Shown: one piece after another, positions 4,902 through 64,000 of the stretch | Layout: each line of letters starts with the position of its first letter | Numbering within the stretch: the stretch's first letter is position 1 | Assembly: GCA_029547805.1 (NCBI GenBank) | Contig: JAKPOP010000015.1 | Span: 21,556-85,555 of the forward strand | Origin: Deltaproteobacteria bacterium | GTDB taxonomy: Bacteria; Myxococcota_A; UBA9042; DTJE01 | Direction: 5' to 3' | Length of the DNA: 64,000 nucleotides | The notes under the pieces: model-generated | What the model was told of the DNA's origin: nothing | Databases searched by the model: none | What the model saw: the letters and a program-made list of their open reading frames with translations, nothing else | Translations under genes and position numbers: made by a program

Positions 4902-4902
4902 G

Positions 4903-38555: not shown

Positions 38556-38607
38556 GGACGTCGCCTCCTGCGGCCCGTCCCGCCCCCGGTCCTCCGAGGA
38601 CGTTGCG

Positions 38608-41123: not shown

Positions 41124-41125
41124 CC

Positions 41126-45872: not shown

Positions 45873-46289
45873 ATGGGTGCGGTGGTTCGCTTCAGTGCGT
45901 CGATCGAGGAGGACCTGTTCCGGCAGTTCGAGGAGGCAACCCGCCGCCGGGGCTATTCCAATCGATCCGAGGCCCTGCGGGACCTGATCCGGGACTCCCT
46001 GGTCCGGGAGGAGTGGGAAGGCGACCAGGAGATCGTCGGGACGGTCACGCTGGTCTATGACCACCACATCCGGGAACTCTCGGACCGCCTCACGGCCCTG
46101 CAGCACGACCATCACCGCGTGATCCTGTCGGCCATGCACGTCCACCTGGACCATGACAACTGCCTGGAGGTCATCGCGGTGAAGGGCCGGGCCTCGAAGG
46201 TCCAGAAGATCGCCGACGCCCTGATCGGTACCCGGGGAGTCAAGCACGGCCGCCTGACGGCCACCACCACCGGCAAGCGCCTCAGATAG
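45873..46289 (+). CDS. nikR: Nickel-responsive regulator NikR (ribbon-helix-helix plus ACT-like metal-binding domain)
   Basis: RFSASIEEDLFRQFEEATRRRGYSNRSEALRDLIR is the RHH domain. HHIRELSDRLTALQHDHHRVILSAMHVHLDHDNCLEV carries the His/Cys Ni-site residues. Confidence 0.9.
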   Translation: MGAVVRFSASIEEDLFRQFEEATRRRGYSNRSEALRDLIRDSLVREEWEGDQEIVGTVTLVYDHHIRELSDRLTALQHDHHRVILSAMHVHLDHDNCLEVIAVKGRASKVQKIADALIGTRGVKHGRLTATTTGKRLR

Positions 46290-47747: not shown

Positions 47748-47752
47748 CCCGC

Positions 47753-48908: not shown

Positions 48909-50818
48909 CCGCCCAACCCCACCTTCAGGCCCGCCAGGACGTGGAACCCGGGCATCTCGTAGCCCCGGATGTATTCGTACTTCCGATTCATCAGGTTGCG
49001 AAGGACCAGCCAGGGCTCCAGGGTCCAGTCCTTGCCAGGGGGCTCCAGGCGGTAACGCACCGCCAGGTCCAGGAAGAAGGGGTCCGGGATCGGTTCCCGG
49101 CGGTAGTTGGCCATGTAGAGGCCATGCACCCACTCGCCGCTGACCTCCCCTTCCAGGCGATGGGAACCCCACCGGTGTCCCAGCGTAGCGGCGAAGTCCA
49201 GCATCGCCTCGGGATTCTGGCGGGTGTAGCGGCCGACCCGCTGCCAGGACCCGGCCACCGTCGCCCCGAAGGGTCCCAGGTCCCGGACTCGGACCCGCCC
49301 CTCGAGGCCCCAGACCGTGTAGGCATCGATGTTGACCACCTCAGCGGCCGGCCAGGACCCGAAGTACCGGATCAGGTTCCGGGCCTGCGATCGATAGGCG
49401 GTCAGGGAGACCTCCAGGTGCCGGAAGTCCTCGTAGCCCAGCGTGGCGTCCCAGTTCAGGGAGGTCTCGGGCCGCAGGTCCGGGTTCGCGACGGGATAGG
49501 GCAGATAGAGTTCCCGGATCGTCGGCTGGCGGTAGTTCCGGGTGACCCGGGTGCGCACGGACCATCCCCGCCAGAAGTTCCAGCGGACCCCGGCCTTCCC
49601 GAGCCAGAGGAACCCCCATCTCAGGCTGTAGAGTTCCCGGGACCCGACCACCAGGGACAGCCCCTGGACGGGCCGCCAGAGGACCTGTTGCCAGGCCGCC
49701 AGGTCCACCATCGCCCGGACATCCGTCGCGGTCCCCTGGATGCGGTTGCGGACCTCCCCGTCCATGTCCTGGGCCTCAACCCCCCCCAGGACCTCCCAGT
49801 TCCGATGTGGCCGCCAGCAGACCTCGCCCCGGCCACCCAGGGTCCAGTCCAACGACTGGAATCCATCATGGAGCCGGTGGCGACCCAGGGTCGCGTAGGG
49901 CAGCAGGGTCACCCGGAGCCCCGGGCGCTGGTACTCGAGGGCCCCCGAGAGGTTGTCCCTCCAGACATCGAAGGTGTGGTCCGTGAAGGGATGCTGGACC
50001 GTGCCGGGGTCACCGCCGGTGACGTGGACCGCCTTGTTGCGCAGCACCAGGGACCACCCCGGGGCGAGCCGAAGGCGCCCGGCGCTCTGGATCACCAGCA
50101 CGCTGCCGCCGGCCCCGTCCCGGTGGCCATCGGTTCGCATCCCATGGAGGGCGAAGGCCCCCTCCCATCCATCCTTCCGTCCCAGGGCCGTCACGGTGCC
50201 CTGGAGGGTCGCAAAACTGCCGTAGGCGGCGTCCGAGCGTACCTCCCATCCATCCTCGGGCAACCAGCGGCTCCGGAGCACGATGGCGGCCCCCATCGCG
50301 TTGCTGCCGTAGAGCACCGAGTCGCCGCCCTCCACCACGACGGCCTGGTCGATCAGGTCCGGGACATAGGCATCCGGAAGGGGATGTCCGAAGATGCCCT
50401 GGACGTCGGGCACGCCGTCCTCGACCACCAGGACCTGGGTGTTGGGGCTTCCTCCGAGCCCCCGGACCGTCAGGCCCCCGGCGGCGCCGCTGGCAACCCC
50501 CGCGGGCCCGACACCGCGCCGAGTGACGTGGATGGACGCCGATTCCTGGGCCAGGGCCTCGAGCAGGGTCGGTCTGGGGCTCTCCCGCAACCGCTCGCCG
50601 GGAACGGCCACCTGGTCCTGGGTCTGGTCCGGCGACACGGGCCGCGAAGCCTGGATCACGGTCTGGTGGTCCGGCGCCGCACCGGGCGTCGGCACGGCAG
50701 CATCCCCCGGCTCCTCCCCCTCCTCGGGCGGCGGGGACGGGGCCTCCTCGGGGGATCCGGCCCTGGCCGGCGGACCCAGCACCAGCAACAGGAACACCAG
50801 CCACGGAGCGCCGCGCAT
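48905..50818 (-). CDS. TonB-dependent outer-membrane receptor
   Basis: The signal peptide is MRGAPWLVFLLLVLGPPARAG. Plug motifs include LLEALAQESASIHV, GLTVRGLGGSPNTQVLVVEDGVP and VVVEGGDSVLYGSNAMGAAIVLRSR. The start is at Met 50818. Confidence 0.88.
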   Translation of the reverse strand: MRGAPWLVFLLLVLGPPARAGSPEEAPSPPPEEGEEPGDAAVPTPGAAPDHQTVIQASRPVSPDQTQDQVAVPGERLRESPRPTLLEALAQESASIHVTRRGVGPAGVASGAAGGLTVRGLGGSPNTQVLVVEDGVPDVQGIFGHPLPDAYVPDLIDQAVVVEGGDSVLYGSNAMGAAIVLRSRWLPEDGWEVRSDAAYGSFATLQGTVTALGRKDGWEGAFALHGMRTDGHRDGAGGSVLVIQSAGRLRLAPGWSLVLRNKAVHVTGGDPGTVQHPFTDHTFDVWRDNLSGALEYQRPGLRVTLLPYATLGRHRLHDGFQSLDWTLGGRGEVCWRPHRNWEVLGGVEAQDMDGEVRNRIQGTATDVRAMVDLAAWQQVLWRPVQGLSLVVGSRELYSLRWGFLWLGKAGVRWNFWRGWSVRTRVTRNYRQPTIRELYLPYPVANPDLRPETSLNWDATLGYEDFRHLEVSLTAYRSQARNLIRYFGSWPAAEVVNIDAYTVWGLEGRVRVRDLGPFGATVAGSWQRVGRYTRQNPEAMLDFAATLGHRWGSHRLEGEVSGEWVHGLYMANYRREPIPDPFFLDLAVRYRLEPPGKDWTLEPWLVLRNLMNRKYEYIRGYEMPGFHVLAGLKVGLGG

Positions 50819-50828
50819 CCGGGCCTCC

Positions 50829-51248
50829 TCAGTGCCCGTAAGGGCCCGGAATGGAAAAATCCTGCTCCAGCGCGTCGCCCCCCTGGACCTCGATGACCCG
50901 GAAGTCCCCGGCGTCGACGGTCCACTGGGCCACGGTCTGGTAGTTGAACCACAGGGGCCCGGTGGTTGCCTCCTCGGGGTCCATCCGTTGCTCCGCGAAC
51001 TGGTCCAGGTCCAGTTTCTGGAAGTGCACCTGGTCCCGACCCGGAAGGCAACGCCTGGGGACCGTCGCATCCCCGTAGTTGAGGGTCGCCTCCCAGCGGC
51101 ACCCGTTGAAGGAGGGATTGCGGATCACCACCGCGGTGTCGATGCGGTTCACGACGACGACCTCCGGGTAGCGGAGGTCGCAGCCCAACAGGCCCCCGAT
51201 GGCCAGCAGCCAGAGGCGAGACCGGGGAACCTGGCGGCGGCGTTTCAC
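50829..51248 (-). CDS. Small lipoprotein, unknown function
   Basis: The GTG start at 51248 gives VKRRRQVPRSRLWLLAIGGLLGC (a lipobox). It is a ~139-aa Cys-containing protein directly upstream of the TonB receptor. Confidence 0.5.
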   Translation of the reverse strand: MKRRRQVPRSRLWLLAIGGLLGCDLRYPEVVVVNRIDTAVVIRNPSFNGCRWEATLNYGDATVPRRCLPGRDQVHFQKLDLDQFAEQRMDPEEATTGPLWFNYQTVAQWTVDAGDFRVIEVQGGDALEQDFSIPGPYGH

Positions 51249-51258
51249 CCGCGCCTCG

Positions 51259-51756
51259 CTACTCTGGCAGGCACTGGGTGTTCTCCGTGCGCTGGGCATA
51301 GGGCTTGAATCCGTACTCGGGGTACAGTTCCAGGATGCGGTTATAGACCGTCTCCGGAATGGGCGGAACCCCCTCCGGCGGGCAGGGGCCCTGGTGGCTG
51401 GGCTTCCCGATGGCAATCGTCCGGGTCTGGCCGTCCACCACCTCCTCCTCATTTTTCGATGCGATGGGCAGGCAGTTCTCCGGGTGGCACTCCGGGTCGT
51501 CCCAGGCGGCGACCATGAGCACGTAGTCCAGCCCCGGCTCGACCTTCTGGGGCGCCGAGGTCTCTCCGATGCCGATCCGGCCGAACTCCACCCCCAGGTA
51601 GGTGGCCCGGCAGATCGTCCACGGGGGCTTGAACCCCTCCACTGCAGGGTTGTTGAAGTCATTCTGGATCTGCACCGTCGCCGACTCGGTACCCGTCTCG
51701 CACCCTGCGACGGCCACGGTCCACAGCCCCAACGCCACGAGCATCCGCCTGTCCAT
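51259..51756 (-). CDS. Small lipoprotein, unknown function
   Basis: MDRRMLVALGLWTVAVAGC (a lipobox). It is 165 aa with several Cys residues and is the first gene of the lipoprotein / TonB receptor / ECF operon. Confidence 0.6.
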   Translation of the reverse strand: MDRRMLVALGLWTVAVAGCETGTESATVQIQNDFNNPAVEGFKPPWTICRATYLGVEFGRIGIGETSAPQKVEPGLDYVLMVAAWDDPECHPENCLPIASKNEEEVVDGQTRTIAIGKPSHQGPCPPEGVPPIPETVYNRILELYPEYGFKPYAQRTENTQCLPE

Positions 51757-51782: not shown

Positions 51783-51811
51783 GATATTACGACTGTCCCG
51801 GAAGTAATATC
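51783..51811. promoter_or_regulatory. Perfect dyad GATATTAC-N13-GTAATATC (candidate NikR operator)
   Basis: A perfect 8-bp inverted repeat separated by 13 nt, 27-55 nt upstream of the first gene (start 51756) of the putative Ni/Co uptake operon. The two half-sites separated by more than one helical turn match the architecture of known NikR operators. Confidence 0.5.
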
Positions 51812-52013: not shown

Positions 52014-54179
52014 TCAACGTCCCGGCGGGCGGAACGACGGGGATCGCGTGAGGCCGTCCCACCGGTGATCCAGCAGGGCCAGCAACAGCCCCAGCAGACG
52101 ACGGTCCCCGGGTTCGCCGGCGGGAGTCTCCCGGAGCAGGCACAGGCGAAAATGTCGGGACGCCAGGAAGGCCTCGGTCCGACTCTCGCCCCCGAACAGG
52201 TCCCCCTGCAAGACCCGATCCCCCACCCGGATCCCCAGGCGCAGGGCCCCCTCCTCCGATCCCTCCACCGGGCGCAGAGAGGCGATGCGGAGACTGCCGA
52301 GGTCCCCGGGAAGCCCCCGGGCCAGCACCCGAGCCACGTCCCGGACCACCCGGGCCTCCCGTGGCAGGGTCTCCTCGCCCACCAGGGGGTCGAGCCAGTC
52401 GGCCACCGGGGTCGCCCCCCTTTCCTGGGAGGCCCTCAGCACCACCCTGGGGTCCTCCCGGAGCCGCCGATGCCGGGGCCGGGGGTCCTCGTCCAGGGGG
52501 CATCGCCGGGCCGCCTCGGCCAGAGCACCGGACAGCAGCGCCCGGGGGTCCTGCTCCACGCCGTCCCGTTCCACCCGGTCCAGCAGCACCAGTCCCAGGT
52601 CCAGCGGCAGGAACCGGGCCCCCTGGACCAGATCCCGGATCCACGGGAAGTCCGGGTCGTCGCGGAAGTACCAGCACTCCGCTCCGTCGTTCCAGGCCGC
52701 GAAGGCCCGGACGAACCATCGGAAGAAGCAGGCAGTGCGCGGGTCCAGGAAGTGCCAGGGAAGGGCCCCGTGGATGTCCTCGAACAGGGTCACCGGCACA
52801 TAGAGGATTCCCCGGTCCTCGTAGTGGTCCCGGAGGATGCCTCCCTGGGCCCGTGCCAGGGCGGTGATGGGCGTCGTGCGGACCAGGAGCAGGGTCGACA
52901 CCATCCAGAAGCCCGTCGGGTCCAGGCCCAGCCGCCGCCCCTCCTCCAGGTTGATCCGGATGTCCTCCGGGAGGGTCCAGGGGGTGAAGAAAATGAAGGA
53001 CCAGGCCGATCGTCCGCCGTCGCCGTGGAAGAACTCGAACCCCTCGGGGAAGCGCTGCTGCCACTCCTGCTGCAACGCGATGACCCCCTCGATGTGGTCC
53101 ATGGTCAGGCGCTTGTTGAACCGGGCCATCTCCGCCGGAGAGAAGGTCTCGATGCCCATGATCAGGGTCTTCAGCACGTGCCCCGCGGCCAGCATCCCGG
53201 GAATCGCCGCCTCGATGGCCTCCCGCTCGCGCAGCACATCATCCAGCCGAGGAGCGAAATAGAACGTCGAGGGGGGCATCTCCAGGTCCAGCACCATCCG
53301 ACAGAAGCGCTGCACCTCCGAGAGCATGTCGTAGTCAAAGACCATGTAGGCATTCTTGTTCCGCAGCGACCGTCCCGGCGGCGCGGCCAGGATGCGCCGC
53401 AACTGGCTCTCGATCAGGGCCAGGCGATCGACGCGGGGCGAGTGCAGGGGCGGTGTCGGGGAGCCGCCGCAATAGGAGCAGCCCGTGATGACTCGACACT
53501 CCTTGAGGTCCACCCCGTCGAAGATCGGGTTGTCGGCCACCGACGGCTTGCCCCCGCAGGAGACCCCGCTGACCAGCACCAGGTTGCTCCCGGCGGCGGC
53601 ACTCTCCTGGTCCAGGGGCTCCGCGTCGTAGTGCGGCGTCACGTGTTCCACCAGGTACCGGGTCGCCTCCTCGGGGGCCTCGATGCCCAGGAATCGCAGG
53701 AACCAGTAGGGACGGGCGTAGTACCAGGGATTGTCCCGCGGATGAAGGGTCCGGGCCACCTGGGCCAGCACCGGGTCCGGACCCTGGAGATACTCCTCGC
53801 GACGGAAGTGGAATTCCTTGCCGGCGGGCATCGACAGGATGACCAGCCCCGGCGGGGTTGCGCCCCGGATGGCCTCCTCGGTCTCCCGGGAGAGGTCCTC
53901 CGTGACCACCAGATGGGTCGGGGCGAAGTCCCGAAGACGGCGGGCCAGCGTCTCCAACTGTCCCGGTTCCAGGTCGGCGTGGAGCAGCCGCCCCTCCTGC
54001 CGATCCTCATGGCGACGGATCCGGGAGAGGGCGAACCACCACTGGGCCTCCACCCCGTGCTCTCGGGCCGTCCCCAGCAGGAACGGGAAGAACATGCTCC
54101 GCTCGTTGACCCGGTCGTACTGGACCAGGAATTCCAGCAGGACCAGCCTCGGGGGCGCTCCCGCCTCGGGTCGTTCCAT
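52014..54179 (-). CDS. Large radical-SAM-like protein (N-terminal Rossmann/B12-binding-like region, CX5CX2C motif, long unique C-terminal region)
   Basis: The 721-aa ORF has coding-like composition. The Cys cluster is KECRVITGCSYCGG (53469..53498). A radical-SAM-core-like stretch is TLIMGIETFSPAEMARFNKRLTMDHIEG. It is the last gene of the minus-strand nitrogenase-like operon. The family assignment is tentative. Confidence 0.55.
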   Translation of the reverse strand: MERPEAGAPPRLVLLEFLVQYDRVNERSMFFPFLLGTAREHGVEAQWWFALSRIRRHEDRQEGRLLHADLEPGQLETLARRLRDFAPTHLVVTEDLSRETEEAIRGATPPGLVILSMPAGKEFHFRREEYLQGPDPVLAQVARTLHPRDNPWYYARPYWFLRFLGIEAPEEATRYLVEHVTPHYDAEPLDQESAAAGSNLVLVSGVSCGGKPSVADNPIFDGVDLKECRVITGCSYCGGSPTPPLHSPRVDRLALIESQLRRILAAPPGRSLRNKNAYMVFDYDMLSEVQRFCRMVLDLEMPPSTFYFAPRLDDVLREREAIEAAIPGMLAAGHVLKTLIMGIETFSPAEMARFNKRLTMDHIEGVIALQQEWQQRFPEGFEFFHGDGGRSAWSFIFFTPWTLPEDIRINLEEGRRLGLDPTGFWMVSTLLLVRTTPITALARAQGGILRDHYEDRGILYVPVTLFEDIHGALPWHFLDPRTACFFRWFVRAFAAWNDGAECWYFRDDPDFPWIRDLVQGARFLPLDLGLVLLDRVERDGVEQDPRALLSGALAEAARRCPLDEDPRPRHRRLREDPRVVLRASQERGATPVADWLDPLVGEETLPREARVVRDVARVLARGLPGDLGSLRIASLRPVEGSEEGALRLGIRVGDRVLQGDLFGGESRTEAFLASRHFRLCLLRETPAGEPGDRRLLGLLLALLDHRWDGLTRSPSFRPPGR

Positions 54180-54238: not shown

Positions 54239-55060
54239 TCAGACGTCCAGGTCCCGCAACAAGCCCATCAGTTCCCGCCGCTCCAGGGGGACCGGCAGCG
54301 GCAGGTCCGGGGGCAGCGGGGCCCGGACTGCCTCGGCCAGGGCACGGAACCGCTCCGCCGCCTCGCTGGTCGGGGCATCGTCAATCACGGTCCGGTTGCG
54401 CCGCTCTGCCTCCCGGACCTCGCGACTCCAGGGAATGAAGCCGAGCACCCGGGCCTTCAGGCGCCCGGCAAAACCCCTCAAGGCCTCCTCGATGGCCGGG
54501 TCCAGGGCCTTCACGTTGAAGACGATCCCTGCGAGTTGCACCCCGTCGTCCACATGGTTCAGCAGGGCCTTGCAGACGTTGTTCGCGGCGTAGAGGGCCA
54601 TCGGTTCCGCCGAGGCCACGATCACGACCCGGTTGCCCAGGCCGTAGCGCAGGGGAGCCACGAAGCCTCCACAGACCAGGTCCCCCAGGACGTCGAACAA
54701 CGCCACGTCGTACGGCCACGAGAGGAGATCCCGGGCCTCCAGCCAGTCGAAGAGGTTCGCGACGCCGCGACCCGCGCACCCGACCCCCGGGTCCGGGCCC
54801 CCGATCTCGATGGTGTCCACCCCCGTGGGCCCGGGCACGATCACCTCGTCGGGACGGCGCCTGTTCAGGGACCGGTCCGCGATGAAATCCAGCACTGCCG
54901 GGCCCTCCCGGTCCCCCCGCAGACGAAGGGACGAGTCCATCTTGGGGTCGCACCCCACGTGGAGCACCCGGAGCCCGGCCTCGCGCCACGCGGCGCTCAG
55001 GTGCACCGCCACCGTGGACTTGCCGATTCCCCCCTTGCCGTAGAGCACCACCCGCAACAT
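54239..55060 (-). CDS. NifH/BchL-family ATPase (nitrogenase-like reductase component 2), copy 1
   Basis: MLRVVLYGKGGIGKST (P-loop), GCDPKMDS (switch I), GGPDPGVGCAGRGV and FDVLGDLVCGGF (the two [4Fe-4S] Cys ligands), and YAANNV. The start is at Met 55060. Confidence 0.9.
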   Translation of the reverse strand: MLRVVLYGKGGIGKSTVAVHLSAAWREAGLRVLHVGCDPKMDSSLRLRGDREGPAVLDFIADRSLNRRRPDEVIVPGPTGVDTIEIGGPDPGVGCAGRGVANLFDWLEARDLLSWPYDVALFDVLGDLVCGGFVAPLRYGLGNRVVIVASAEPMALYAANNVCKALLNHVDDGVQLAGIVFNVKALDPAIEEALRGFAGRLKARVLGFIPWSREVREAERRNRTVIDDAPTSEAAERFRALAEAVRAPLPPDLPLPVPLERRELMGLLRDLDV

Positions 55061-55079
55061 CCGCCCGTCCCTCCCGGTC

Positions 55080-56375
55080 TCAGAGCGGGGTTCGAAACCC
55101 GCGCACCAGGGCCGCATCCCTCCACTGGGACGCCTCGACCAGCCGATCCGTGAGCCACAGCGCCCCCTCGAATCCCAGCCAGGGCTCCGGCCGCGTGGGA
55201 TGGCGCAGGAAGTTCGGGTACCCCAGGGGAAGCAGCCCCGGAACCGGCAGCGGATCCGGGAAGGCCGTCGATGCGATGCGCAGGTCGGCCTCCGGCTCCG
55301 GAACCTCGTCATGCGGCGCCTCGAAGACCCAGGAGCCGTCCACCACCGGGTCCCCGTCCAGGTGCTCCCGTCTCCCCAGGACGTCCACGAGCACCGTCTC
55401 CACCCCCAGGTCATCCAGGAAGTCCCGAAGTCCCCGGACCAGGAAGGGGTCCCCCTGGATCACCGCCTGCCGCCCGTGCAGGAATCGAAAGGCCCGGTCC
55501 CGGACCAGTGGCACGACCCGGGTCAGTTCGCGGTCCAGGAAGGTCTCGCCCGTCTCCCGCAGCCCCAGGGCCTCGGCGACGGCCCGGACAAAGGCGCCGG
55601 TCCCCCGCAATCCCACCGGGAGCGGGGCCTGCACGCAGGGAACTCCCAGGCGTCCCGCGAGGATCCGCCCCGCCGCCCGCCCGTATGGAAGGGTCACCAC
55701 CGCCGAGGCCCGCCCCGCCCGGGCCAGATCGGTGACCAGGCGGCCGTCGAGCCACAGAGAGGCGATGTCCGCCCCGACACCACGAACGAGCCGGTAAATC
55801 TCGTCGACGTTGCCCAGGCAGTCCCCCTCCCGCCGATCCATCAGGTGCCCCACCACGGCCACCTGCCCCGGCAGCGGTCCCCCAGGGTCCAGGTCCAGGT
55901 CCGCCGCCAGCCGCTCCAGCACCCGGGAGTGACCGTCGATCCAGTCCGCCTCGAGGGACTCGGAAGGGACCCGGACCACCCGGGCATGCCCCTTCGCCTG
56001 GGCCCGCCGGCGATGCTGCTCCAGCGGCTCGTTGAGCAGGTGGTTGAAGTCCATGCTGGACACGACGACCAGACGAAAGCGGGGGTCCTGGGCAGCGCCC
56101 TCCAGCACCTCGCCGATGTCGCGGCTGCGGTTCAAGGCCATGCTGGGAACGACGCTGGTGTTGAACCGGATGTCGGTGTGGAGCAGGCGACCGGGCCCGT
56201 CGGCCCGCACCAGGTCCGAGGCGGGGTCGTGGGCCATGTGCAACTCGGCCTTCTGGACCAGACAGTAGGGACCGTCGACCACGAGGGCCGCGTCCCGGAT
56301 GGCGCTGACGGCGAGGTAGAGTCCATTCAGAAACGGGAGGTTGTGGGGGATCGGGGGCCGGGAGGCGCGAGTCAC
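55080..56375 (-). CDS. Nitrogenase component-1-like subunit, small (431 aa), copy 1
   Basis: It is a paralogue of 61663..62967 and has an Oxidored_nitro-like architecture (VVDGPYC..., VAVVGHLMDRREGD..., LPYGRAAGRILAGRLGVP...LPVGLRGT). The GTG at 56375 overlaps the upstream stop (GTGA). Confidence 0.75.
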   Translation of the reverse strand: MTRASRPPIPHNLPFLNGLYLAVSAIRDAALVVDGPYCLVQKAELHMAHDPASDLVRADGPGRLLHTDIRFNTSVVPSMALNRSRDIGEVLEGAAQDPRFRLVVVSSMDFNHLLNEPLEQHRRRAQAKGHARVVRVPSESLEADWIDGHSRVLERLAADLDLDPGGPLPGQVAVVGHLMDRREGDCLGNVDEIYRLVRGVGADIASLWLDGRLVTDLARAGRASAVVTLPYGRAAGRILAGRLGVPCVQAPLPVGLRGTGAFVRAVAEALGLRETGETFLDRELTRVVPLVRDRAFRFLHGRQAVIQGDPFLVRGLRDFLDDLGVETVLVDVLGRREHLDGDPVVDGSWVFEAPHDEVPEPEADLRIASTAFPDPLPVPGLLPLGYPNFLRHPTRPEPWLGFEGALWLTDRLVEASQWRDAALVRGFRTPL

Positions 56376-58498
56376 CGGGCACCTCCGGCCAGGTAGGTCG
56401 CAAAGGCCCGCAGAGGCAGGTGTTCCGCTGCCCGAAGCCACCGTTCCAGGGACCTCCGGGCCCCCTGGAGGCCCATCTCCAGGTCGTGTTCCGAAAAGAC
56501 CCCCTTGCCGGCCCGGGTGACCCGGGGGTCGGCGGTGAAGTGGGAATAGACCAGGGAGACATCCTGCGCGGCCATCTTGCGAGTCAGGTCGTCGGGGTCT
56601 TCGAAGAACTGCATCGACAGGCGTCGGGCCAGGGGGTGACGTGCCAGTCGCTCCTGCAGGAAGGCCGGGTCATTGCCCTCGGGCCAGACCAGGAAGCGAA
56701 CCAGGAAGCCCATCTCCAACAGCACGTCCAGCATCGAGAAGGCATTCACCGGGGTGGTGTCCAGCAGGAGGTCCAGTTCCTCCAGGTCCGTCACGAAGGC
56801 CAGCACATGGCCCGAGGCCCGTCCTCGCAGGGTCTCCCAGGCATCGCGGCTTCGCTGATCCAGGGTGTCCACTGCCTGGAGCGCGGCCTCCGGATCCGGG
56901 AGATGACGAGCGACCTCCCTCAGCCAGGCCAGCGTTCCCTCCCGTCCGAACGGGGCCCGGGGGCGCACGAGCCGCACCGGAAGCCCGTCGAAGGCCAGTT
57001 CGGAGATGTCCGACAGGGCCGTCTGGCGGGCCCAGACCAGCACCGAGGCCTCGGCGATTCGTTGAAACTCCTCCCGGCCCACCCGGGGGAGCACGACCCC
57101 CAGGGGTCTGGCACCGATGGTTCCTGTGAGTTCCAACAGTTCCCTGTCCTCTTCTGAAGAACCACCGCCCAGCACCGCGACTCCCCGGGGGTCCCGCGGG
57201 GCCTGGGCGGGAGCCGCGGCCTCCAGGCGATCCCGGAGGAGGCGAGAGGTGTAGCCCCCGAAGTCGTTGGCCGCCCCCAACCAGTAGAACCGGGCCCGCG
57301 TCCTGGCTGCGGCCTTCCGGAACAGTGGCACAGGATTGTCCCCGATGACGTCCGGCAGGCACCCCGTCATCAGCACCACGGCGTCGCGGTCCGGATCCGC
57401 AACGGCTCCCTCGATGGCCTGCTCCAGTCGCCGCATCGTGTGGCCAGCCAGCACCACGGGTCCATGGAGGTCCGTCATGCGGACGTCGCACTCCCGGTGC
57501 CAGCCGCCGACCTGGACGTCCCGGCCATAGCGGAAGAAGGTCCCGTCCGGAGGAACCCAGGGGGACTCTGAGAAGACGCACTCCCGGGACTCGTGGATCA
57601 CCAGCGAGTCCTTGGGCCCCGGCTGGAACAGGTTCACGATGCAGCGGCTCAAGGGATAGTGGAAGCGCCGCCAGCGATCCGTGGCGTCCCAGCGCCGGAT
57701 GAACGCCTCGTGGCGAACCCGCGGGTAGAAGCGCTGGAGGTAGGAGTCCGGGGCCAGCGGAGGCGCGGCGGAATCCTGCACCGGCGGGTCCTCGACGCCC
57801 CCCGGGGGCACCCGGAGGCGGGCTCCCCGGACCAGCAGGCGGGCGACGGCGAAGCCGGCCAGGCGCTCCGGCTGTTCCGCGAGGCGGCCCCGTTCGCCTG
57901 GAGGCCGAGGATCCTGGACCACGCGAAACGACAGTTCCCGGAGGCCGCAGAGGCGAACTCCCGGCGGGTCCCCGGGAACCCGGATCGGCGCCAGGCGGAA
58001 GACCAGGGGAGGTTGGTCCGGCTGCTGGAACCGGAACTCCAACCCGTCCGGCACCGGACGAAAGAGGTCCACCAGCCGGTAGGTCCCCCAGGTGGTCACG
58101 CCGGGGATCAACCACGGGGACAGGACCGCGGCCCATGTCTGCTCCGTGAACGGCAGAACGGCCTCCTCCCCAGGGCCCCATCCCAGGAGGGGCTCCGTGG
58201 AGGCCAGTGCCGCCAGGCGGTCCGGGAAGTCCCCCAGGTCCTCGGGGGCGAGGTCATGGAGCCAGAGGAGGCCCGGCAGTCCCGGATGGGACAGCGACGG
58301 GTCCACCGGAACTCCAGGGGGAACCCATCGCACCGCGGCCCGTCGCCCGGCTCCCAGGAACCGGAAGGTCACGGAACCGTCCCGCTCCAGCAGGACCTGG
58401 CGACAGGCCATGCCCGGAAGCCCCAGGCGATCCGCCCAGAGGGGCAGGCAGTCCCAGAGTCCCGGCGTCCCTTCCGTTCCGCGAGGCGGTTCCTGCAT
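56372..58498 (-). CDS. Nitrogenase component-1-like subunit, large (708 aa, with a ~297-aa N-terminal extension), copy 1
   Basis: The C-terminal ~410 aa has NifD/E/BchN-like motifs: VIHESREC, RECDVRMTDLHGPVVLAG and VLMTGCLPDVIGDN. I chose the start at Met 58498 (MQEPPRG); the ORF extends to 58687. Confidence 0.75.
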   Translation of the reverse strand: MQEPPRGTEGTPGLWDCLPLWADRLGLPGMACRQVLLERDGSVTFRFLGAGRRAAVRWVPPGVPVDPSLSHPGLPGLLWLHDLAPEDLGDFPDRLAALASTEPLLGWGPGEEAVLPFTEQTWAAVLSPWLIPGVTTWGTYRLVDLFRPVPDGLEFRFQQPDQPPLVFRLAPIRVPGDPPGVRLCGLRELSFRVVQDPRPPGERGRLAEQPERLAGFAVARLLVRGARLRVPPGGVEDPPVQDSAAPPLAPDSYLQRFYPRVRHEAFIRRWDATDRWRRFHYPLSRCIVNLFQPGPKDSLVIHESRECVFSESPWVPPDGTFFRYGRDVQVGGWHRECDVRMTDLHGPVVLAGHTMRRLEQAIEGAVADPDRDAVVLMTGCLPDVIGDNPVPLFRKAAARTRARFYWLGAANDFGGYTSRLLRDRLEAAAPAQAPRDPRGVAVLGGGSSEEDRELLELTGTIGARPLGVVLPRVGREEFQRIAEASVLVWARQTALSDISELAFDGLPVRLVRPRAPFGREGTLAWLREVARHLPDPEAALQAVDTLDQRSRDAWETLRGRASGHVLAFVTDLEELDLLLDTTPVNAFSMLDVLLEMGFLVRFLVWPEGNDPAFLQERLARHPLARRLSMQFFEDPDDLTRKMAAQDVSLVYSHFTADPRVTRAGKGVFSEHDLEMGLQGARRSLERWLRAAEHLPLRAFATYLAGGAR

Positions 58499-58755
58499 TG
58501 TGCTGCACCCCGAGCCCGAAGGCAGTCTATGCCCAGGGCCCGCGCCTATCAAGGCGACCCCGCGATGTCGGGCCCCGGACCGACGCGCGACAGGAACCTC
58601 CGGGTGTTGGAGGAGAATCCCATCCACGACACCGCCATCGTTCGAGGCGGCGGGTCCCCCTCGCGGTTCGATGGCCCCCAGGGCCACGGCCGAGGATTCC
58701 GGGTCTCGTTTCGCCGCGTCCGCGAGTAGAATCCTTCCGCACCGGGGAGGCTCCG

Positions 58756-59586
58756 ATGCGAGAGATCGTGATCGCCGGCAAGGGGGGCATCGGCAAGTCC
58801 ACGCTGGTGACCAACCTGGCCGTGCTGGCGGCCCGGCGGGGCCTCAAGGTCCTCCAGGTGGGCTGCGACCCGAAGCACGACTCCTGCACCCGGCACTTCG
58901 ACCGACGGTTGCCCACGGTGATGGACCTCTTCAAGGAGAAGGGCCGGGTGGACCGGCAGGACATCGAGGGCATCCTGGCCCAGGGCCGCACCGGGGTCTT
59001 CGGGGTCGAGGCGGGGGGACCCTCCCCCGGGGAGGGCTGCGCCGGGAGGGCCATCTCCCTGCTGCTGGAGTTCATGCGCAGCGCAGGGGACCTCTTCGAC
59101 CGCTTCGACCTGGTCCTTTACGACCTCCTGGGGGACGTGGTCTGCGGGGGCTTTGCCGCCCCGATCCGCCGAGGCCCCGACACCGCCATCTATCTGGTCA
59201 CGTCGGGAGAGATCCTGCCCACCTACGCCGCGAACAACATCGCCCAGGGCATCCGGAACCTGTCCCGGCGCGGGGGCGGACGCCTGGGGGGCATCCTGGC
59301 CAATCTCCGGGGGACTCCCGGCGAGCGGCAGATCCTGGAACGCTTCGCCGCGGGTCTTGGCACCCAGGTGACGGGCTGGATCCCCCGGGATCCGGCGGTC
59401 TTCGCCGCCGAGCAGGCCCGGCGCACGCTGATGGAACACGCCCCGGACTCCCCGGCCGCCCGGGCCATCGAGGCCCTGGCCCGGAGGATCCTCGACGAGC
59501 CGCCGGACCTGGTCGTGCCGACCCCCCTGGAGGAGGAGGCCTTCGAGGCCCTGTTCTCGCCCTGGCGGGAAGGGGAGGTTCGATGA
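58756..59586 (+). CDS. NifH/BchL-family ATPase (nitrogenase-like reductase component 2), copy 2
   Basis: MREIVIAGKGGIGKST, VLQVGCDPKHDS, GGPSPGEGCAGRA, YDLLGDVVCGGFAAPIR, SGEILPTYAANNI and RLGGILAN. GGGGAGG is upstream of ATG 58756. Confidence 0.9.
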   Translation: MREIVIAGKGGIGKSTLVTNLAVLAARRGLKVLQVGCDPKHDSCTRHFDRRLPTVMDLFKEKGRVDRQDIEGILAQGRTGVFGVEAGGPSPGEGCAGRAISLLLEFMRSAGDLFDRFDLVLYDLLGDVVCGGFAAPIRRGPDTAIYLVTSGEILPTYAANNIAQGIRNLSRRGGGRLGGILANLRGTPGERQILERFAAGLGTQVTGWIPRDPAVFAAEQARRTLMEHAPDSPAARAIEALARRILDEPPDLVVPTPLEEEAFEALFSPWREGEVR

Positions 59587-61655
59587 TGCCCCTGGACCAG
59601 GTCCTCCGACGGCTCGTGCAGGCCCTCCGGGATCAGGGGATCCCGGCGACCTGGGCCGCGCCGACACTGGCCGGACATCTGGTGGTGGCCATCGAGGCCC
59701 CCGGGGGGGGCTGGAGGGCCGTGGTGTCCATCCGCCCGCCCCGACCCTCGGAGGGCGTGGTGGCCCGGGTCGGGGATCTGTTCCTCCGGGGCATCGGACC
59801 CAAGGAAGGCCCGTCGCCGGCCGACTTCCAGGGCTTCGTGGCCGCCTGGCGCCGGGTTGTCGCGGGGGACCTGGCCCCCTTCCTGGACCTCCACAACCGG
59901 GAGGTCCGGGAGGTGGAGGCGACCCCTGCAGGACTGTCGCGGCTGCTGGCCTGGATGGTCCACCCGGGTGCCCCGTTGCTGACGGGCTGGGTCCTGCGGG
60001 AGGTCCGGCGGGCCCCGGGACCTCGACCGCGCCTGCTGCTGGAGATGGCCCGGGAGGGGCAGGAGACCCCGGAGGTCCTCCTGGCCCTGGACCCCGAGGG
60101 GCCCGAGGGACCGGAGGAGGAGGTCCTGGCGACACTGCCCCTCGGGCTGCTGGTCCGCCGGGTCGCGGGGGCGACCGCCGCTGCAGACCGGGATCGGGTC
60201 CTGGCCGAGTCGGCCCTGGTCCTTGTCCTGAGGATGTCGATGCCCGCGTCCCTGCGATGGGGTCCCTGGCCCGCCCCGGAGAACCCGGCCCCCCGTCCGC
60301 CCGCAAGGCGCCAGGACGACACGCTGATCGTCCACAGCTACCGCACCGACCACGAGTGGCACGTCCCCCGGAGTCGCTTTTTCGGCACCTGGGGCGACAA
60401 GGACTGGTTCATCCTGCTGGCACTGCTCGACCGCCCGACCATGAACGTCTTCCACGGAAACCGGGAGTGCCAGCAGGTCCGGCAGCCCCTCAGCGACCGC
60501 TTCGCCCACGGTGCCAACCCCTTCCACCCCTCCCGTCGCCACTGGGCCTGGATGGTGACCCACACCCGATTCACCGACACCGACGACCGGGCGGCGATCT
60601 TCGGCGGCGAGGACCGGCTCCAGGGCCTGCTGGACCGGATCGAGTCCGAGGGCCCCGGCCAGGAGGTCCGGGTGCTGGTGGGCTGCGATGCCGAGGTGGT
60701 CGGGGACGACGTTCCCGGGGTCTGCCGGATGGTCCGATCCGAGGGACGCAACGTCGCCTGCTTCAACCCTCCCCTGCCCCGCTTCACCGATGCCTCCGAC
60801 CGGAACTGGTGGCTGCAGTTCCTGCAGGACCGGGACCGGGGCGTGGCGCCGGAGCCAGGAACCGTGAATCTGGGGGGATTCCAGTGGCCTGATCACCCGG
60901 CCATGGCAGAAACGGAGGCCCTCCTGGCCCGGGTTGGAGTGCGGGTCGCCTGCCGGATGCTCCCGGGCCACTCGCCCGACCTGCGGACCGCCGTGGGCGC
61001 CGGCCAGGTGACCGTGCTGTCGCCGTGGTTCCCGGTCCAGGAGGTGCTGGGGTCCGCCCTGGCCCAGGAGGGACTGCCGTTTCAGACGCTGCCGCTGCCC
61101 TACGGGGAAGGGCCGACCCGGGCCTGGCTGGCGGCGACGGCCCGGGCGGCGGGACGGGATCCCCCGACAGAGGCCTCCTGGGAGGACATGACGCGCCCCT
61201 GGCGGTCGGCCCTCGACGAGATGCGGATCCGGGCTGGGAAGGTCCGGGTCGCCCTGGTGGCCGACTGGGGCACCGCGACGGAGATGTGCGACCCGGCCTT
61301 CTTCTTCGGGCTGGACCCGCTGGCGTTGCTGCAGGACCTGGGCTTCCCGGTGGTCGTGTTGGGCCGGGAGGCCCACGACGTCGTGGAGCGGACCCGAAGA
61401 CAATGGCCGGAGGCGCGCCTGGAAGCGGTGGAGATGGACCCGGTCCACGGGGATGTCGTCGCCCGGGTCCGGGAGGTCCGGCCGGACCTGGTCTATTGCG
61501 ACCGGGAGGATGCCACCGCCGTGAAGGCCGTGGGCGCGGTGCCCTTCGGCATCGGGGACCTGGAGCCGGGGCTGGCCGGGGCGACCCGGACCCTGCGTCG
61601 GCTCCTGGCGAGGTCGGGGCTCCAGATCTACCGGCGCTACCCGGTCTGGAAGTGA
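59583..61655 (+). CDS. Nitrogenase component-1-like subunit, large (690 aa, with a ~286-aa N-terminal extension), copy 2
   Basis: VFHGNREC, FTDTDDRAAIFGGEDRL (compare the NifD TTD..E.DIVFGG motif) and VLVGCDAEVVGDDV. There is an ATGA overlap with the NifH-like stop. It is a paralogue of 56372..58498. Confidence 0.75.
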   Translation: MMPLDQVLRRLVQALRDQGIPATWAAPTLAGHLVVAIEAPGGGWRAVVSIRPPRPSEGVVARVGDLFLRGIGPKEGPSPADFQGFVAAWRRVVAGDLAPFLDLHNREVREVEATPAGLSRLLAWMVHPGAPLLTGWVLREVRRAPGPRPRLLLEMAREGQETPEVLLALDPEGPEGPEEEVLATLPLGLLVRRVAGATAAADRDRVLAESALVLVLRMSMPASLRWGPWPAPENPAPRPPARRQDDTLIVHSYRTDHEWHVPRSRFFGTWGDKDWFILLALLDRPTMNVFHGNRECQQVRQPLSDRFAHGANPFHPSRRHWAWMVTHTRFTDTDDRAAIFGGEDRLQGLLDRIESEGPGQEVRVLVGCDAEVVGDDVPGVCRMVRSEGRNVACFNPPLPRFTDASDRNWWLQFLQDRDRGVAPEPGTVNLGGFQWPDHPAMAETEALLARVGVRVACRMLPGHSPDLRTAVGAGQVTVLSPWFPVQEVLGSALAQEGLPFQTLPLPYGEGPTRAWLAATARAAGRDPPTEASWEDMTRPWRSALDEMRIRAGKVRVALVADWGTATEMCDPAFFFGLDPLALLQDLGFPVVVLGREAHDVVERTRRQWPEARLEAVEMDPVHGDVVARVREVRPDLVYCDREDATAVKAVGAVPFGIGDLEPGLAGATRTLRRLLARSGLQIYRRYPVWK

Positions 61656-61662
61656 GGTACCG

Positions 61663-62967
61663 ATGCCGCCGCCCTTCGATGCGACCCTGAGGCTCTCCCC
61701 GACCTTCATGGACGGGGTCTTCCTGTCGGTGGCGGCCATCCCGGACGCGGCGCTCCTCTATGTCGGATCCACCTGCATCAACGAGCACTTCCGCCACAGT
61801 CTGCAACTGGCCGACTGGGGCCAGGACCTCCTGCGGGATGGCCAGCAGAGCCGACTGCTGCTGACCTTCAGCGACAAGACCGTGGCCCCGATGGGCGTGG
61901 GTCACCAGGTCGATCTGGTGGTCCGGCGGATGTTGCCGACGATGCGCCCCGCATTGCTGGTCCTGGCCGAACTCACCCGCGTGACGCTGGCCGGCGAGGA
62001 CCTGGAGACGCTGGCGGAGTCGGTCACGGGGGAGACGGGGCTCCCGACGATCGCTGCGACGAGCCGACTCCTGGTCCGGGACTGGCAGACGGCCTTCCGG
62101 CGCATCCTGGTCGGGCTCGCGGAGGGGATCCCAGATGCGGCCTTCGAGGGAGGCCCGGTTCCGGGAACCGTGGCGGTGATCGGCCACCTCTTCCAACGAA
62201 ACGAGGCGGATCAGCACGCCGATGTCCGGGAGTGGAAAACCCTCCTGCGCATGGCCGGGCTGGAGCCCCTGTCCATCTGGCTGTCCCGGGAGACGGTCCC
62301 CGAGCTGCACCGTGCGGCCCGGGCCTCGTGGCTGGTGGCATTGCCCCAGGGGCGGGAGGCGGCGCGTCGCATCGCCCGGCGGTCCGGAGCGCAGGTGATT
62401 GACCTGGACCTGCCGATCGGGCTCCAGGGCACCGAGGAGGTCGTATTGCGGCTGGCCGATGCCAGTGGGAATGAGGGCCCGGCCCGGACCCGCCTGGACG
62501 AGGCATTGCGCGCGGTGCTGCCCCTGGTGGATCAGGCTGCGGGTCACCGGCTGGCGGGACGGAGGGTGGCCCTGGCGGCACTGCCGGACTGGTCGGATGG
62601 CACTGCGCGGATGTTCCGGGAGGACTTCGGGCTCGACGTCGCCGCGACGACGCGACGTTGTCGGCTGATCACCCCCGAAGAGGAGGCGGCGGGGGTCTCC
62701 CAGGACCTCCTCCGGGACCACGACCCCAGCGTGGCGTCCTGGAATGAGGTCCTGCGACGGGCGATGGACGAGGGTCCCCTGGACCTGATCGTGGGCAGTT
62801 CCTGGGAGCGAAACGCCCTTCAGGGTCTCGTGACGAAGGTTCCCTTCGTGGAGTTCGGGTATCCCTGTCTATCCTGGCACGACCTGGTGGGCCTCCCGGG
62901 AATGGGACTGGGGGGCGTGGTGGCCTGGGCCCATCGCCTGTGCGCCGCACTGGAGGACCGTTTCTGA
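61663..62967 (+). CDS. Nitrogenase component-1-like subunit, small (434 aa), copy 2
   Basis: YVGSTCINEHF (compare the BchN/ChlN VGSRTC motif), VAVIGHLFQRNEAD and LPQGREAARRIARRSGAQ...LPIGLQGT. It is a paralogue of 55080..56375. Confidence 0.75.
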   Translation: MPPPFDATLRLSPTFMDGVFLSVAAIPDAALLYVGSTCINEHFRHSLQLADWGQDLLRDGQQSRLLLTFSDKTVAPMGVGHQVDLVVRRMLPTMRPALLVLAELTRVTLAGEDLETLAESVTGETGLPTIAATSRLLVRDWQTAFRRILVGLAEGIPDAAFEGGPVPGTVAVIGHLFQRNEADQHADVREWKTLLRMAGLEPLSIWLSRETVPELHRAARASWLVALPQGREAARRIARRSGAQVIDLDLPIGLQGTEEVVLRLADASGNEGPARTRLDEALRAVLPLVDQAAGHRLAGRRVALAALPDWSDGTARMFREDFGLDVAATTRRCRLITPEEEAAGVSQDLLRDHDPSVASWNEVLRRAMDEGPLDLIVGSSWERNALQGLVTKVPFVEFGYPCLSWHDLVGLPGMGLGGVVAWAHRLCAALEDRF

Positions 62968-63054
62968 CCGGTCTTCGCCGCTGAGAGGACCCTTGCGCCC
63001 GGTGCCGCTTTGGGACACCATGACCGGGAACGTCTTTCTTGAGGAGGTTCGACC

Positions 63055-64000
63055 ATGCGACATGGCGGTTGGCTGGTGTTGGCCTTGCTGTGGGCCGCCT
63101 GCGGGTCCAGTTCGGGCGGAGACGACCTCGGTGCGCGGGATGTCCCTTCCGACACGGAGGTGCCCAGCCTCACCGATCTGCCCGCCGGGGCCGAGGAATC
63201 GATGGACGCCCAGGACCTGGGCGAGGCACCGGACCATCAGGAGATCGGCCCCGATTTCACCGTGGTGACCTACAACACGGGCCTGGCGGTGGGCTACGTG
63301 GACTGGGCCCCCCAGCGCGTGCCCTTCATCGGAGAGGCGATCCGGTCCCTGGAGGCCGACGTGGTCTGCCTGCAAGAGGTCTGGGCCGATATGGACGGGG
63401 ACGCCATCATCCAGGCGACCTCCACGGTCTTCCCCCACTCCTTCCGCATGCTGACCTCCGACGAAAGTGGCGGAGAAGCGGCCGCCTGCACGTCCCAGGA
63501 ACTGGATCCCCTGGCGGCCTGCACCCGAGACCACTGCAGCGACGTCCCGCCCGAGAACCTGGCGAACTGCGTGCTCGGGAACTGCGGCGACCAGTTCAAC
63601 GCCATCAGCAGCACCTGCCAGACCTGCCTTGTGAGCCAGTTGGGCAACACCCTGGACGACATGGTTGCTGCGTGCAGCGGGGGGGCCGGGGGACAGTATG
63701 CCTACGGTGGGCGCAACGGCCTCCTGCTGCTCTCGCGACACCCACTGACGAACCAGGAGACGCTGGTCTTCGAGTCCTACCTGAACCGCCGGGTGGCGCT
63801 GCATGTCGTGGTGCAGGACCCCAGCCTGGGGGCCGTGGACGTCTACTGCACCCACCTCACGGCGGACCTCTCGGACGTCCCCTACGGCGGCACGAAGGGG
63901 TCCTGGGGCGCGGAGCAGGGCCTCCAGGTCGATGCGTTGACCCAATGGGTGGAACAGACCCGCTCCGCGGTGGTCGTGGTGGTGGCCGGGGACATGAACT
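63055..64000 (+). CDS. Endonuclease/exonuclease/phosphatase (EEP)-family lipoprotein, 5' part; continues past the window end
   Basis: Hand translation from ATG 63055 (GAGGAGG upstream) reads MRHGGWLVLALLWAACGSSSGG... (a lipobox). Further on: FTVVTYNTGLAVG..., VVCLQEVW, LLLSRHPL and VVVVVAGDMN, which are EEP-like catalytic strand motifs. No stop occurs before position 64000. Confidence 0.7.
   Translation, partial: MRHGGWLVLALLWAACGSSSGGDDLGARDVPSDTEVPSLTDLPAGAEESMDAQDLGEAPDHQEIGPDFTVVTYNTGLAVGYVDWAPQRVPFIGEAIRSLEADVVCLQEVWADMDGDAIIQATSTVFPHSFRMLTSDESGGEAAACTSQELDPLAACTRDHCSDVPPENLANCVLGNCGDQFNAISSTCQTCLVSQLGNTLDDMVAACSGGAGGQYAYGGRNGLLLLSRHPLTNQETLVFESYLNRRVALHVVVQDPSLGAVDVYCTHLTADLSDVPYGGTKGSWGAEQGLQVDALTQWVEQTRSAVVVVVAGDMN

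Follow-up and report, generated by a model that had tools for sequence, protein, structure and literature searches.

A Myxococcota locus combining two distantly paralogous nitrogenase-like gene sets with an OxsB-like protein

Analysis of a 64,000-nucleotide stretch of DNA from a Deltaproteobacteria bacterium (Myxococcota; GenBank assembly GCA_029547805.1, contig JAKPOP010000015.1), referred to below as the window, revealed two divergent nitrogenase-like (NFL) gene sets, each encoding a NifH-type ATPase (H) and a large (D) and a small (K) subunit of nitrogenase component-1 type, together with a gene for an OxsB-like protein designated X. The gene order is large-small-H in set A, on the minus strand, and H-large-small in set B, on the plus strand. 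Set A appears to belong to the nitrogenase paralogues known as Group VI, and set B to an older sister lineage. The best explanation as a whole, to which we assign a probability of about one half, is that A and B are ATP-dependent reductases acting with X in one pathway where the three are clustered. The genes of the locus and the region between the two sets are as follows.

52014-54179, minus strand: protein X (OxsB-like, 721 aa); no Pfam or NCBIfam match, fold match to OxsB
54239-55060, minus strand: set A H (NflH-like ATPase, 273 aa); PF00142, E 3e-71
55080-56375, minus strand: set A small subunit (NflK-like, 431 aa); PF00148, E 1e-31
56372-58498, minus strand: set A large subunit (NflD-like, 708 aa); PF00148, E 2e-13
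58499-58755: divergent intergenic region of 257 bp between the set A large-subunit gene and the set B H gene
58756-59586, plus strand: set B H (NflH-like ATPase, 276 aa); PF00142, E 3e-79
59583-61655, plus strand: set B large subunit (690 aa); PF00148, E 2e-20
61663-62967, plus strand: set B small subunit (434 aa); PF00148, E 1e-28

The G+C content of the window is about 70%, and the open reading frames (ORFs) were filtered by codon-position G+C, with start sites checked. Chance ORFs of GC-rich DNA are ruled out by a third-position G+C (GC3) of 0.83-0.89 and by the presence of conserved orthologues. The small-subunit gene of set A starts with GTG behind GGAGG and overlaps the stop of the large-subunit gene, and gene X begins 59 bp downstream of the set A H gene. 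The intergenic region presumably carries the promoters of both operons; a promoter scan of it gave one sigma-70-like match (58552-58524, minus strand) against 0.6 expected, which is not significant, and Rfam and tRNA scans of the window returned no match, cobalamin riboswitch included. All seven ORFs of an earlier note on this DNA were found where it had placed them, and the permuted gene order that it described was confirmed; the span it gave for the system, 54239-62967, leaves the 721-aa gene (52014-54179) outside.

All six NFL proteins score above the Pfam thresholds, the two H proteins in PF00142 and the other four in PF00148, where they exceed the gathering score. The AlphaFold model of the A large subunit matches the structures of NifEN, MarDK, NifDK and ChlN (E about 1e-14) over its C-terminal ~450 residues, in agreement with the component-1 fold proposed for these proteins. 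Both H proteins keep the Walker A motif (GKGGIGKS) and the two [4Fe-4S] cysteines (Cys97 and Cys132 of Azotobacter vinelandii), the latter within GVGCAGRG and LVCGGF in A and within GEGCAGRA and VVCGGF in B. The suggested paralogy of the two sets is real and old, with identities of 40% between the H proteins, 32% between the small subunits and, by BLASTP over the C-terminal ~330 residues, 25% between the large subunits; the profiles of the two large subunits align over their full length (hhalign E 3e-25).

The six proteins are genuine NFL components and, as had been supposed, lie outside NifHDK/EN, DPOR (BchLNB), COR (BchXYZ) and CfbC by curated hidden Markov model cut-offs; for all six, the scores stay below every NCBIfam equivalog cut-off. 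With the nifH model (cut-off 394) the H proteins of A and B score 249 and 277 bits, with the CfbC model (402) 246 and 268 bits, with the BchL model (345) 168-171 bits and with the BchX model (331) 153-155 bits. For the D and K models the scores are at most 45 bits overall, against cut-offs above 320, being at most 40 bits for nifD/K (cut-offs above 400) and at most 45 bits for BchN/B/Z (cut-offs 420-529). In comparison with solved structures the H proteins reach 180-224 bits when aligned with NifH and MarH, and BchL/ChlL give ~130 bits. Nearly all ORFs of the window were scanned with Pfam, and none of them proved to be a nifB/E/N/V, bch, cfb or chelatase gene, in line with what the sequence alone had indicated for nifB/E/N/V, bch/chl and cfb. 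A true nitrogenase (Nif/Vnf/Anf) is rejected by the scores below the curated cut-offs, the incomplete set of P-cluster cysteines and the absence of ligands of the iron-molybdenum (FeMo) cofactor. DPOR and COR are rejected by the BchL/X/N/B/Z scores, the outgroup position of BchL and BchX in the H tree and the lack of bch genes, and CfbCD by CfbC scores below 402, the presence of two distinct catalytic subunits per set and the lack of cfb genes.

In the large subunit of set A three cysteines, C286, C307 and C380, are invariant; C307 and C380 align with the cysteines of NifD 'HGPVGC' and 'TCPVGLIGDD' and with the BchN and BchY ligands, and C286, invariant within the A family, stands at the place expected for the first ligand. 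In the large subunit of set B the invariant C296 and C368 align with the same two NifD motifs, the first cluster cysteine is missing, and C381 and C639 are further invariant cysteines. Both small subunits have an invariant C38, which aligns with NifK 'HGSQGC', BchZ 'DGPVGC' and Asp36 of BchB; it is the only P-cluster cysteine they contain, and in set B H42 is invariant as well. Four of the six P-cluster cysteines are thus kept in set A (3+1) and three in set B (2+1). No cysteine occupies the NifD Cys275 position in the large subunit of either set in the alignment with NifD, BchN and BchY, and at the position of the FeMo-cofactor histidine (NifD 'QLHNYDY') a histidine occurs only in the window's close relatives and is not conserved. 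Since the FeMo-cofactor ligands are absent and only four (A) or three (B) of the six P-cluster cysteines are present, both sets most likely encode reductases that have [4Fe-4S] clusters only and work like DPOR, COR or CfbCD; the simplest reading of the ligand pattern would be one inter-subunit [4Fe-4S] cluster, as in these three enzymes.

The large subunit of set A belongs to a small family, with 12 cluster representatives among 5.8 billion proteins, and its matches in species-representative genomes all come from Myxococcota, Myxococcales or 'Deltaproteobacteria' metagenome-assembled genomes (MAGs). The best match, 78% identical and fully syntenic, is in Myxococcota bacterium Go_SlDig_bin_299 (contig L009; related contigs are given L numbers here). 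Two tiers can be distinguished among the homologues of the A H protein, namely a tight orthologue group (57-91% identity) and a broad one (44-51%) of proteins from Myxococcales, Polyangia, Nannocystaceae or Elusimicrobia annotated as 'AAA family ATPase'. One Elusimicrobia member is encoded in an operon of D (545), K (412) and H (280) genes (L019, GCA_016218545.1).

Phylogenetic trees were built by neighbour-joining with 200 bootstraps and few references, without CfbC, IsrH, NfaH, the D and K proteins of Mar and Isr, or the original Group VI sequences. On the H tree the A clade is joined at 97% bootstrap by the H proteins of the Elusimicrobia operon and of L015, where a different Myxococcales MAG carries a third set, and this group is nested in a cluster of 43 Myxococcota and Elusimicrobia sequences (75%). 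The H protein of set B forms its own clade (87%) outside the A/Elusimicrobia cluster, weakly placed (56%) beside the group of NifH and MarH, which excludes both A and B H proteins at 91%; BchL and BchX are outgroups. The D and K trees group set A with the L015 and Elusimicrobia sets at 100% and 99.5%, respectively, and place set B as sister to this clade (89.5% for D, 100% for K), apart from NifDK, BchNB and BchYZ. The small subunit of set A shares 38% identity with the Elusimicrobia K protein and 31% with its neighbour in set B, and the D and K proteins of both sets show 13-20% identity to NifD/K and 13-21% to BchN/B/Y/Z. Because of this placement of H, D and K, set A would be a Group VI-type system and set B an older sister lineage rather than a recent duplicate, as far as these limited trees go. 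Within this set of references the two sets lie outside the NifH+MarH clade and outside NifDK, BchNB and BchYZ. The impression of a new kind of system does not hold, since set A joins the Elusimicrobia-type NFL proteins described in 2020.

Group VI nitrogenase paralogues were defined in groundwater Elusimicrobia, where lineage IV carries several nifHDK copies per genome, with many radical-SAM (S-adenosylmethionine) genes as neighbours, some of them with B12-binding domains; homologues were found in 14 Myxococcales genomes, and tetrapyrrole reduction was proposed as the function (Meheust et al. 2020, bioRxiv 10.1101/765248). A recent review lists the group under 'unknown cofactor synthesis' and describes it as lacking NifB and FeMo-cofactor ligands and as keeping no more than four of the six P-cluster cysteines; it calls these systems 'elusive', gene context having been of little help so far (North & Shafaat 2026, Chemical Reviews). 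No relevant paper came up in literature searches for a connection of nitrogenase-like proteins with OxsB-type enzymes or with Myxococcota.

Other NFL systems were encountered among the relatives. Contig L015 carries at 9518-13518 a D-K-H set of a third kind, which is more closely related to the Elusimicrobia set than it is to A or B, and comes from the same MAG as L013, which has a set A locus; some Myxococcota thus carry at least two or three NFL systems. A two-gene variant, seen at 10001-11946 of L020 and in many matches of the A_H search, is widespread in Myxococcales and consists of an NifH-like protein of ~350 aa with a C-terminal extension and a short (295-aa) Oxidored_nitro protein; the 15 sampled sequences form a clade with 100% support.

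The large subunits of both sets share one architecture, in which ~250-290 N-terminal residues outside the Pfam match form an additional domain in front of the core. In the AlphaFold model of the set A protein this domain spans residues 11-230, has an alpha/beta fold and is predicted with confidence (pLDDT by block mostly 84-94); behind it come a poorly modelled linker and the component-1 core at residues ~340-690. The linker motif RHEAFIRRW..W..F.YP is strongly conserved and is found in the Elusimicrobia D protein too. No relatives of the N-terminal domain were detected in Pfam (E up to 10), in a PDB-sequence profile search or, by hhalign, in the X family, and no separate match to it occurs among the 50 PDB fold matches listed for the A large-subunit model.

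Protein X has no match in Pfam or NCBIfam. A word-index protein search gave only three close relatives, and an exhaustive search defined a family of 543 representatives. Among 37 diverse members C208, C234, C237, R311, D313, G342, E344, K356, P400 and W401, among others, are invariant. These include a non-canonical motif, C208-x25-C234-x2-C237, and a GxE..NK motif; the canonical CX3CX2C is not present. The Radical_SAM family PF04055 is matched by 11 of the 37 members, although some of these matches may stem from fused extra domains. The AlphaFold model of X (pLDDT 85.8, pTM 0.79) has OxsB as its sole significant PDB fold match (Foldseek E 2e-10, probability 1.00, ~650 columns, the only match below 1e-3), at 12-14% identity and a TM-score of 0.41. 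OxsB is also the best PDB sequence for the X-family profile (E 0.05), with C234-x2-C237 falling on the CxxC of OxsB and 'GIETFS..NK' on 'GVESGS..KG'. Because of the fold match and this alignment, X appears to be an OxsB-like, cobalamin-type radical-SAM-like protein in which the first cysteine of CX3CX2C is missing, which agrees with the B12-type character earlier ascribed to it. C208, which lies 26 residues further upstream, probably takes the place of this cysteine.

The strongest evidence that X may bind the catalytic subunit directly is a natural fusion, found in a single case. In L014, a contig of one Myxococcales MAG, positions 7802-11365 encode in one frame of ~1187 aa a region homologous to X (residues 7-537, hhalign E 1e-93) and an NflD core (A residues 252-699, E 4e-134), joined by acidic linkers; the usual N-terminal domain of NflD is absent or replaced, and GC3 remains at 0.88-0.96 across the junction. 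This arrangement suggests that the N-terminal domain of NflD would normally mediate the contact with X.

The gene neighbourhoods were mapped with tblastn and called genes; most related contigs are short, and a partner set may lie elsewhere in the genome. X or a homologue stands beside set A in the window and in L009, L001, L004, L005, L008 and L014. Sets A and B are adjacent in the window, in L009 and in the distant lineage L001 (~40% identity), where the co-location of A, B and X seen in the window recurs, with X as the last gene of the B operon; in the window X follows set A. In L005, L008 and L014 set A is accompanied by X, with no set B within the visible contig. A zinc-dependent alcohol dehydrogenase gene beside X in L005 and L008 was considered as BchC-like and rejected, the protein being an ordinary L-threonine 3-dehydrogenase (445 bits, cut-off 380). 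The gene after the set B small-subunit gene (window 63043-63999) encodes a protein of the endonuclease/exonuclease/phosphatase family, and likewise in close relatives (L009 4626-5543, L021 3842-4759). A weak N-terminal match to this gene was also seen at ~1487-1627 of L026, divergent from an X homologue; that contig is unrelated.

Taken together with what is known of NFL enzymes, the data can be accommodated in the following mechanism. An H2 dimer with a bridging [4Fe-4S] cluster would use MgATP hydrolysis to drive low-potential electrons into a (large/small)2 component containing one inter-subunit [4Fe-4S] cluster, neither of the FeMo-cofactor type nor of the P type. From this cluster electrons would pass straight to an organic substrate in the large/small cavity, the way DPOR, COR and CfbCD operate. 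Set A would work in a physical complex with X, which would carry out a radical step of the methylation or rearrangement type on the same molecule, and the N-terminal domain of the large subunits would probably serve in docking or in handling of the substrate. A second, different reduction would fall to set B, and A, B and X would belong to one pathway where they are clustered. Its product would most plausibly be a modified conjugated macrocycle such as a tetrapyrrole-derived cofactor, or another unsaturated secondary metabolite; a tetrapyrrole-derived or conjugated substrate is suggested by analogy with DPOR, COR and CfbCD and by the published proposal for Group VI, and by these only. A bolder version, which we regard as possible although rather unlikely, is that an unknown reduced and radical-modified macrocyclic cofactor or natural product of Myxococcota, and by extension of Elusimicrobia-type Group VI carriers, is made by two DPOR/COR-like reductases in sequence with an OxsB-like enzyme docked on, or fused to, the catalytic subunit. 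If true, this would represent a new type of radical-SAM/nitrogenase-like enzyme complex.

Several points weigh against reductases A and B acting with X in one pathway. Set B occurs without A or X in L023, over 10 kb on each side, and in the visible part of L025, in both cases as an isolated H-large-small unit of 50-53% identity among glycosyltransferase and malate dehydrogenase genes; therefore, coupling of A and B is not obligatory. The family of X is far larger than that of A and includes relatives without nearby NFL genes (L026). No substrate-identifying gene was seen in the window or the related loci, where tetrapyrrole, chelatase and precursor genes were not found. The X-NflD fusion is present in one MAG contig, with no second example among 149 top X-family representatives, and no fourth cluster ligand was found for set B. 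The trees, too, are neighbour-joining ones with few references, from which CfbC, IsrH, NfaH and the published Group VI sequences were left out. The earlier idea of two-step action on one substrate is a possibility favoured by the clustering of A, B and X in two lineages and weakened by B alone in L023 and L025 and by A with X where no B is visible.

The region downstream of X contains an uptake operon of nickel type and a nikR gene convergent to it, composed as follows.

51259-51756, minus strand: lipoprotein 1
~50829-51248, minus strand: lipoprotein 2
48905-50818, minus strand: TonB-dependent receptor without subfamily assignment
48357-48908, minus strand: 183-aa membrane protein, putative S component of an energy-coupling factor (ECF) transporter, no Pfam or NCBIfam match
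47753-48364, minus strand: SAM methyltransferase, between the S component and the CbiQ-like gene
47001-47747, minus strand: CbiQ-like protein
46282-47004, minus strand: CbiO-like protein
45873-46289, convergent: nikR, 199 bits against a cut-off of 105

The putative S component begins with MSGRL, in apparent contrast to S components of the CbiM/NikM type, and a nickel complex, instead of the free ion, could be the substrate of the operon (46282-51756). In an AT-rich patch 257 bp downstream of X, before the first lipoprotein gene, lies a perfect palindrome, TATTAC-N13-GTAATA (51785-51809), which occurs nowhere else in the window (chance expectation 0) and is kept in L009 (16618-16642). It resembles known NikR operators, and looks like a putative operator for the nikR gene (45873-46289), which would mark the uptake operon as a separate nickel-regulated transcription unit. 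The operon adjoins NFL genes only in the window and L009, and not in L001, L004, L005, L008, L014 or L023. Since neighbours of this kind are missing from all other A and B loci, there is only a weak link to nickel, and the adjacent Ni/Co uptake locus, formerly taken as a functional hint, loses much of its force as a separate unit with its own NikR-like operator. The methyltransferase of this operon was considered as an orthologue of the methyltransferase encoded beside set A in L004 and rejected, the two sharing 23% identity over 100 residues, a generic class I similarity. Both have the NCBIfam 'DVU_1556 family' as their best match, below the cut-off, and a literature search for this name found nothing.

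These neighbours are the starting point of the explanation that we find hardest to accept, a nickel-cofactor pathway in which the sets make or remodel a Ni tetrapyrrole (F430-like) or another Ni cofactor, fed by NikR-controlled TonB/ECF uptake. The nikR gene is genuine, the NikR-box-like palindrome is conserved, and the CfbC-model scores of the H proteins nearly equal their nifH-model scores. These scores are, however, far below the CfbC cut-off, the window has no CfbA/B/E-like genes, the ECF S component is without a family match, the position of the palindrome between X and the lipoprotein/TonB/ECF genes implies separate transcription, and the adjacency is limited to the window and the 78%-identical L009. 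A somewhat better case, though still an improbable one, can be made for a reductive activase that feeds low-potential electrons to the cobalamin or Fe-S cluster of X, the latter being the sole catalyst, by comparison with RACE-type activators and the ATP-driven activation complex of methyl-coenzyme M reductase (MCR). B12-dependent enzymes commonly require reductive reactivation, ATP-coupled low-potential reduction is the job of NifH-type proteins, and set A is strictly adjacent to X and in one case fused to it in frame. Against this, set B occurs without X (L023, L025) and X-family members without NFL genes, a mere electron donor would have no need of large conserved D and K subunits with their substrate-cavity fold and extra domain, and no characterised NFL enzyme acts so.

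Slightly higher, yet still on the unlikely side, and level with each other, stand two further explanations. The sets could be bond-cleaving assimilatory or catabolic reductases like MarBHDK or IsrBHDK, attacking a C-S, C-P or similar bond of a small nutrient with no cofactor being made. IsrBHDK likewise combines an NFL enzyme with a radical-SAM protein that it cannot do without, IsrB does not resemble NifB, simple clusters are predicted for Isr, and the H protein of set B branches, at 56%, beside NifH+MarH; on the other hand, genes for sulfur, sulfonate or phosphonate metabolism or transport are lacking beside every A or B set examined, the D and K proteins group with the Elusimicrobia-type set and not with NifDK (in a tree without Mar/Isr D and K), and the sets lack the P- and L-cluster ligands of Mar. 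Alternatively, A and B could be independent isoenzymes, unrelated in function and neighbours by chance, each with its own substrate and without sequential action. This would suit the existence of B-only and A-only contigs, the further NFL sets on other contigs of some MAGs (such as the one that contains L013 and L015), and the position of the two H proteins in different clades, but leaves unexplained why A and B are adjacent in two lineages that have diverged by ~60% and why they share X, which follows A in one of these lineages and B in the other.

The rest of the window yielded observations of a different kind. An inositol-catabolism-like cluster lies directly upstream of nikR (34640-45800) and seems unrelated to the NFL sets; its members are IolB/KduI, a thiamine pyrophosphate enzyme (IolD-like), an aldehyde dehydrogenase, a transaldolase-family protein, a LacI regulator and a major facilitator superfamily transporter, and an ORF at ~44907-45800, outside the Pfam scans, belongs to the same stretch. 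An island of lower G+C content (63-64% against ~70%) at ~30100-34000 contains two long minus-strand ORFs and may be acquired DNA; the ORF at 30374-31675 (433 aa) has no family match and that at 31416-33713 (765 aa) only a weak DNA-methylase match. Positions 4834-6216 encode an apparent fusion of shikimate dehydrogenase and shikimate kinase (460 aa). The single ORF at 7375-9732 (785 aa) combines domains of chorismate synthase, chorismate mutase and 3-deoxy-D-arabino-heptulosonate 7-phosphate synthase, and may be two genes.

The novelty of the NFL locus is below that assumed in the earlier note, the family having been flagged in 2020, and the locus is still informative. Its contributions are the distinct sister lineage represented by set B, the unrecognised N-terminal domain, the non-canonical B12/radical-SAM partner and the natural fusion of partner and reductase. 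Of the numbered groups in the nitrogenase superfamily, Group VI alone has no assigned reaction, a situation otherwise found only in some Group IV sub-clades. The locus supplies a defined constant partner, the OxsB-like X, and a natural fusion pointing to direct binding of the catalytic subunit. It also forms a compact seven-gene unit (A, B and X) fit for heterologous expression, with a clear [4Fe-4S]-only prediction. A confirmed complex of X and reductase would bear on the unexplained requirement for a radical-SAM protein in isethionate reductase; the understanding of nitrogen fixation itself is unaffected.

Among the known systems, the locus shares with Group VI an H protein ~40% identical to NifH that keeps Walker A and the two cluster cysteines, very divergent D and K proteins that lack FeMo-cofactor ligands and keep no more than four P-cluster cysteines out of six, the absence of nifB (here from the 64-kb window), several sets per genome, radical-SAM neighbours including B12-type ones, Myxococcales hosts and, for set A, grouping with the Elusimicrobia set at 97%, 100% and 99.5% for H, D and K, respectively. 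It differs from Group VI in set B, a separate deeper lineage with its H protein outside the A/Elusimicrobia cluster, and in the N-terminal domain of ~250-290 residues, compared with only ~100 extra residues in the Elusimicrobia D protein examined. CfbCD is likewise an NFL enzyme with [4Fe-4S] clusters only, and acts on a tetrapyrrole, and a nickel-regulated operon is next door here; however, its catalytic part is a homodimer of one subunit, CfbD, in place of the separate large and small subunits encoded here, and cfbA/B/E genes are lacking. With IsrBHDK and MarBHDK of Group IV the locus has in common a three-component NFL operon including a radical-SAM protein, which in Isr is needed. Unlike these systems, the partner here is a 721-aa OxsB-like protein and not NifB/MarB or BciD-like, MarH groups with NifH and not with the A or B H proteins, the Mar P- and L-cluster ligands are absent, and there is no sulfur-metabolism context.

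X itself is close in size to OxsB of oxetanocin A synthesis (721 against ~744 residues; PDB 5UL2-4), with the CxxC and GxES..KG motifs aligned, and differs from it in an extra C-terminal alpha/beta domain, in the missing first cysteine of CX3CX2C and in its NFL gene context. The genomic context of OxsB features an HD-domain phosphohydrolase. DPOR and COR differ from the sets described here in that the fourth ligand is Cys here, not Asp, in lacking the extra N-terminal domain, and in their bch/chl gene context; the host here is a non-phototrophic member of the Myxococcota. They resemble them as two paralogous three-component NFL reductases in one organism without a complex cofactor, with a single inter-subunit [4Fe-4S] cluster, here a predicted one, to which the N/Y-type subunit contributes three ligands and the B/Z-type subunit one. 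As in the proposed grouping of A, B and X, the anaerobic bacteriochlorophyll pathway also has a B12-dependent radical-SAM enzyme, BchE.

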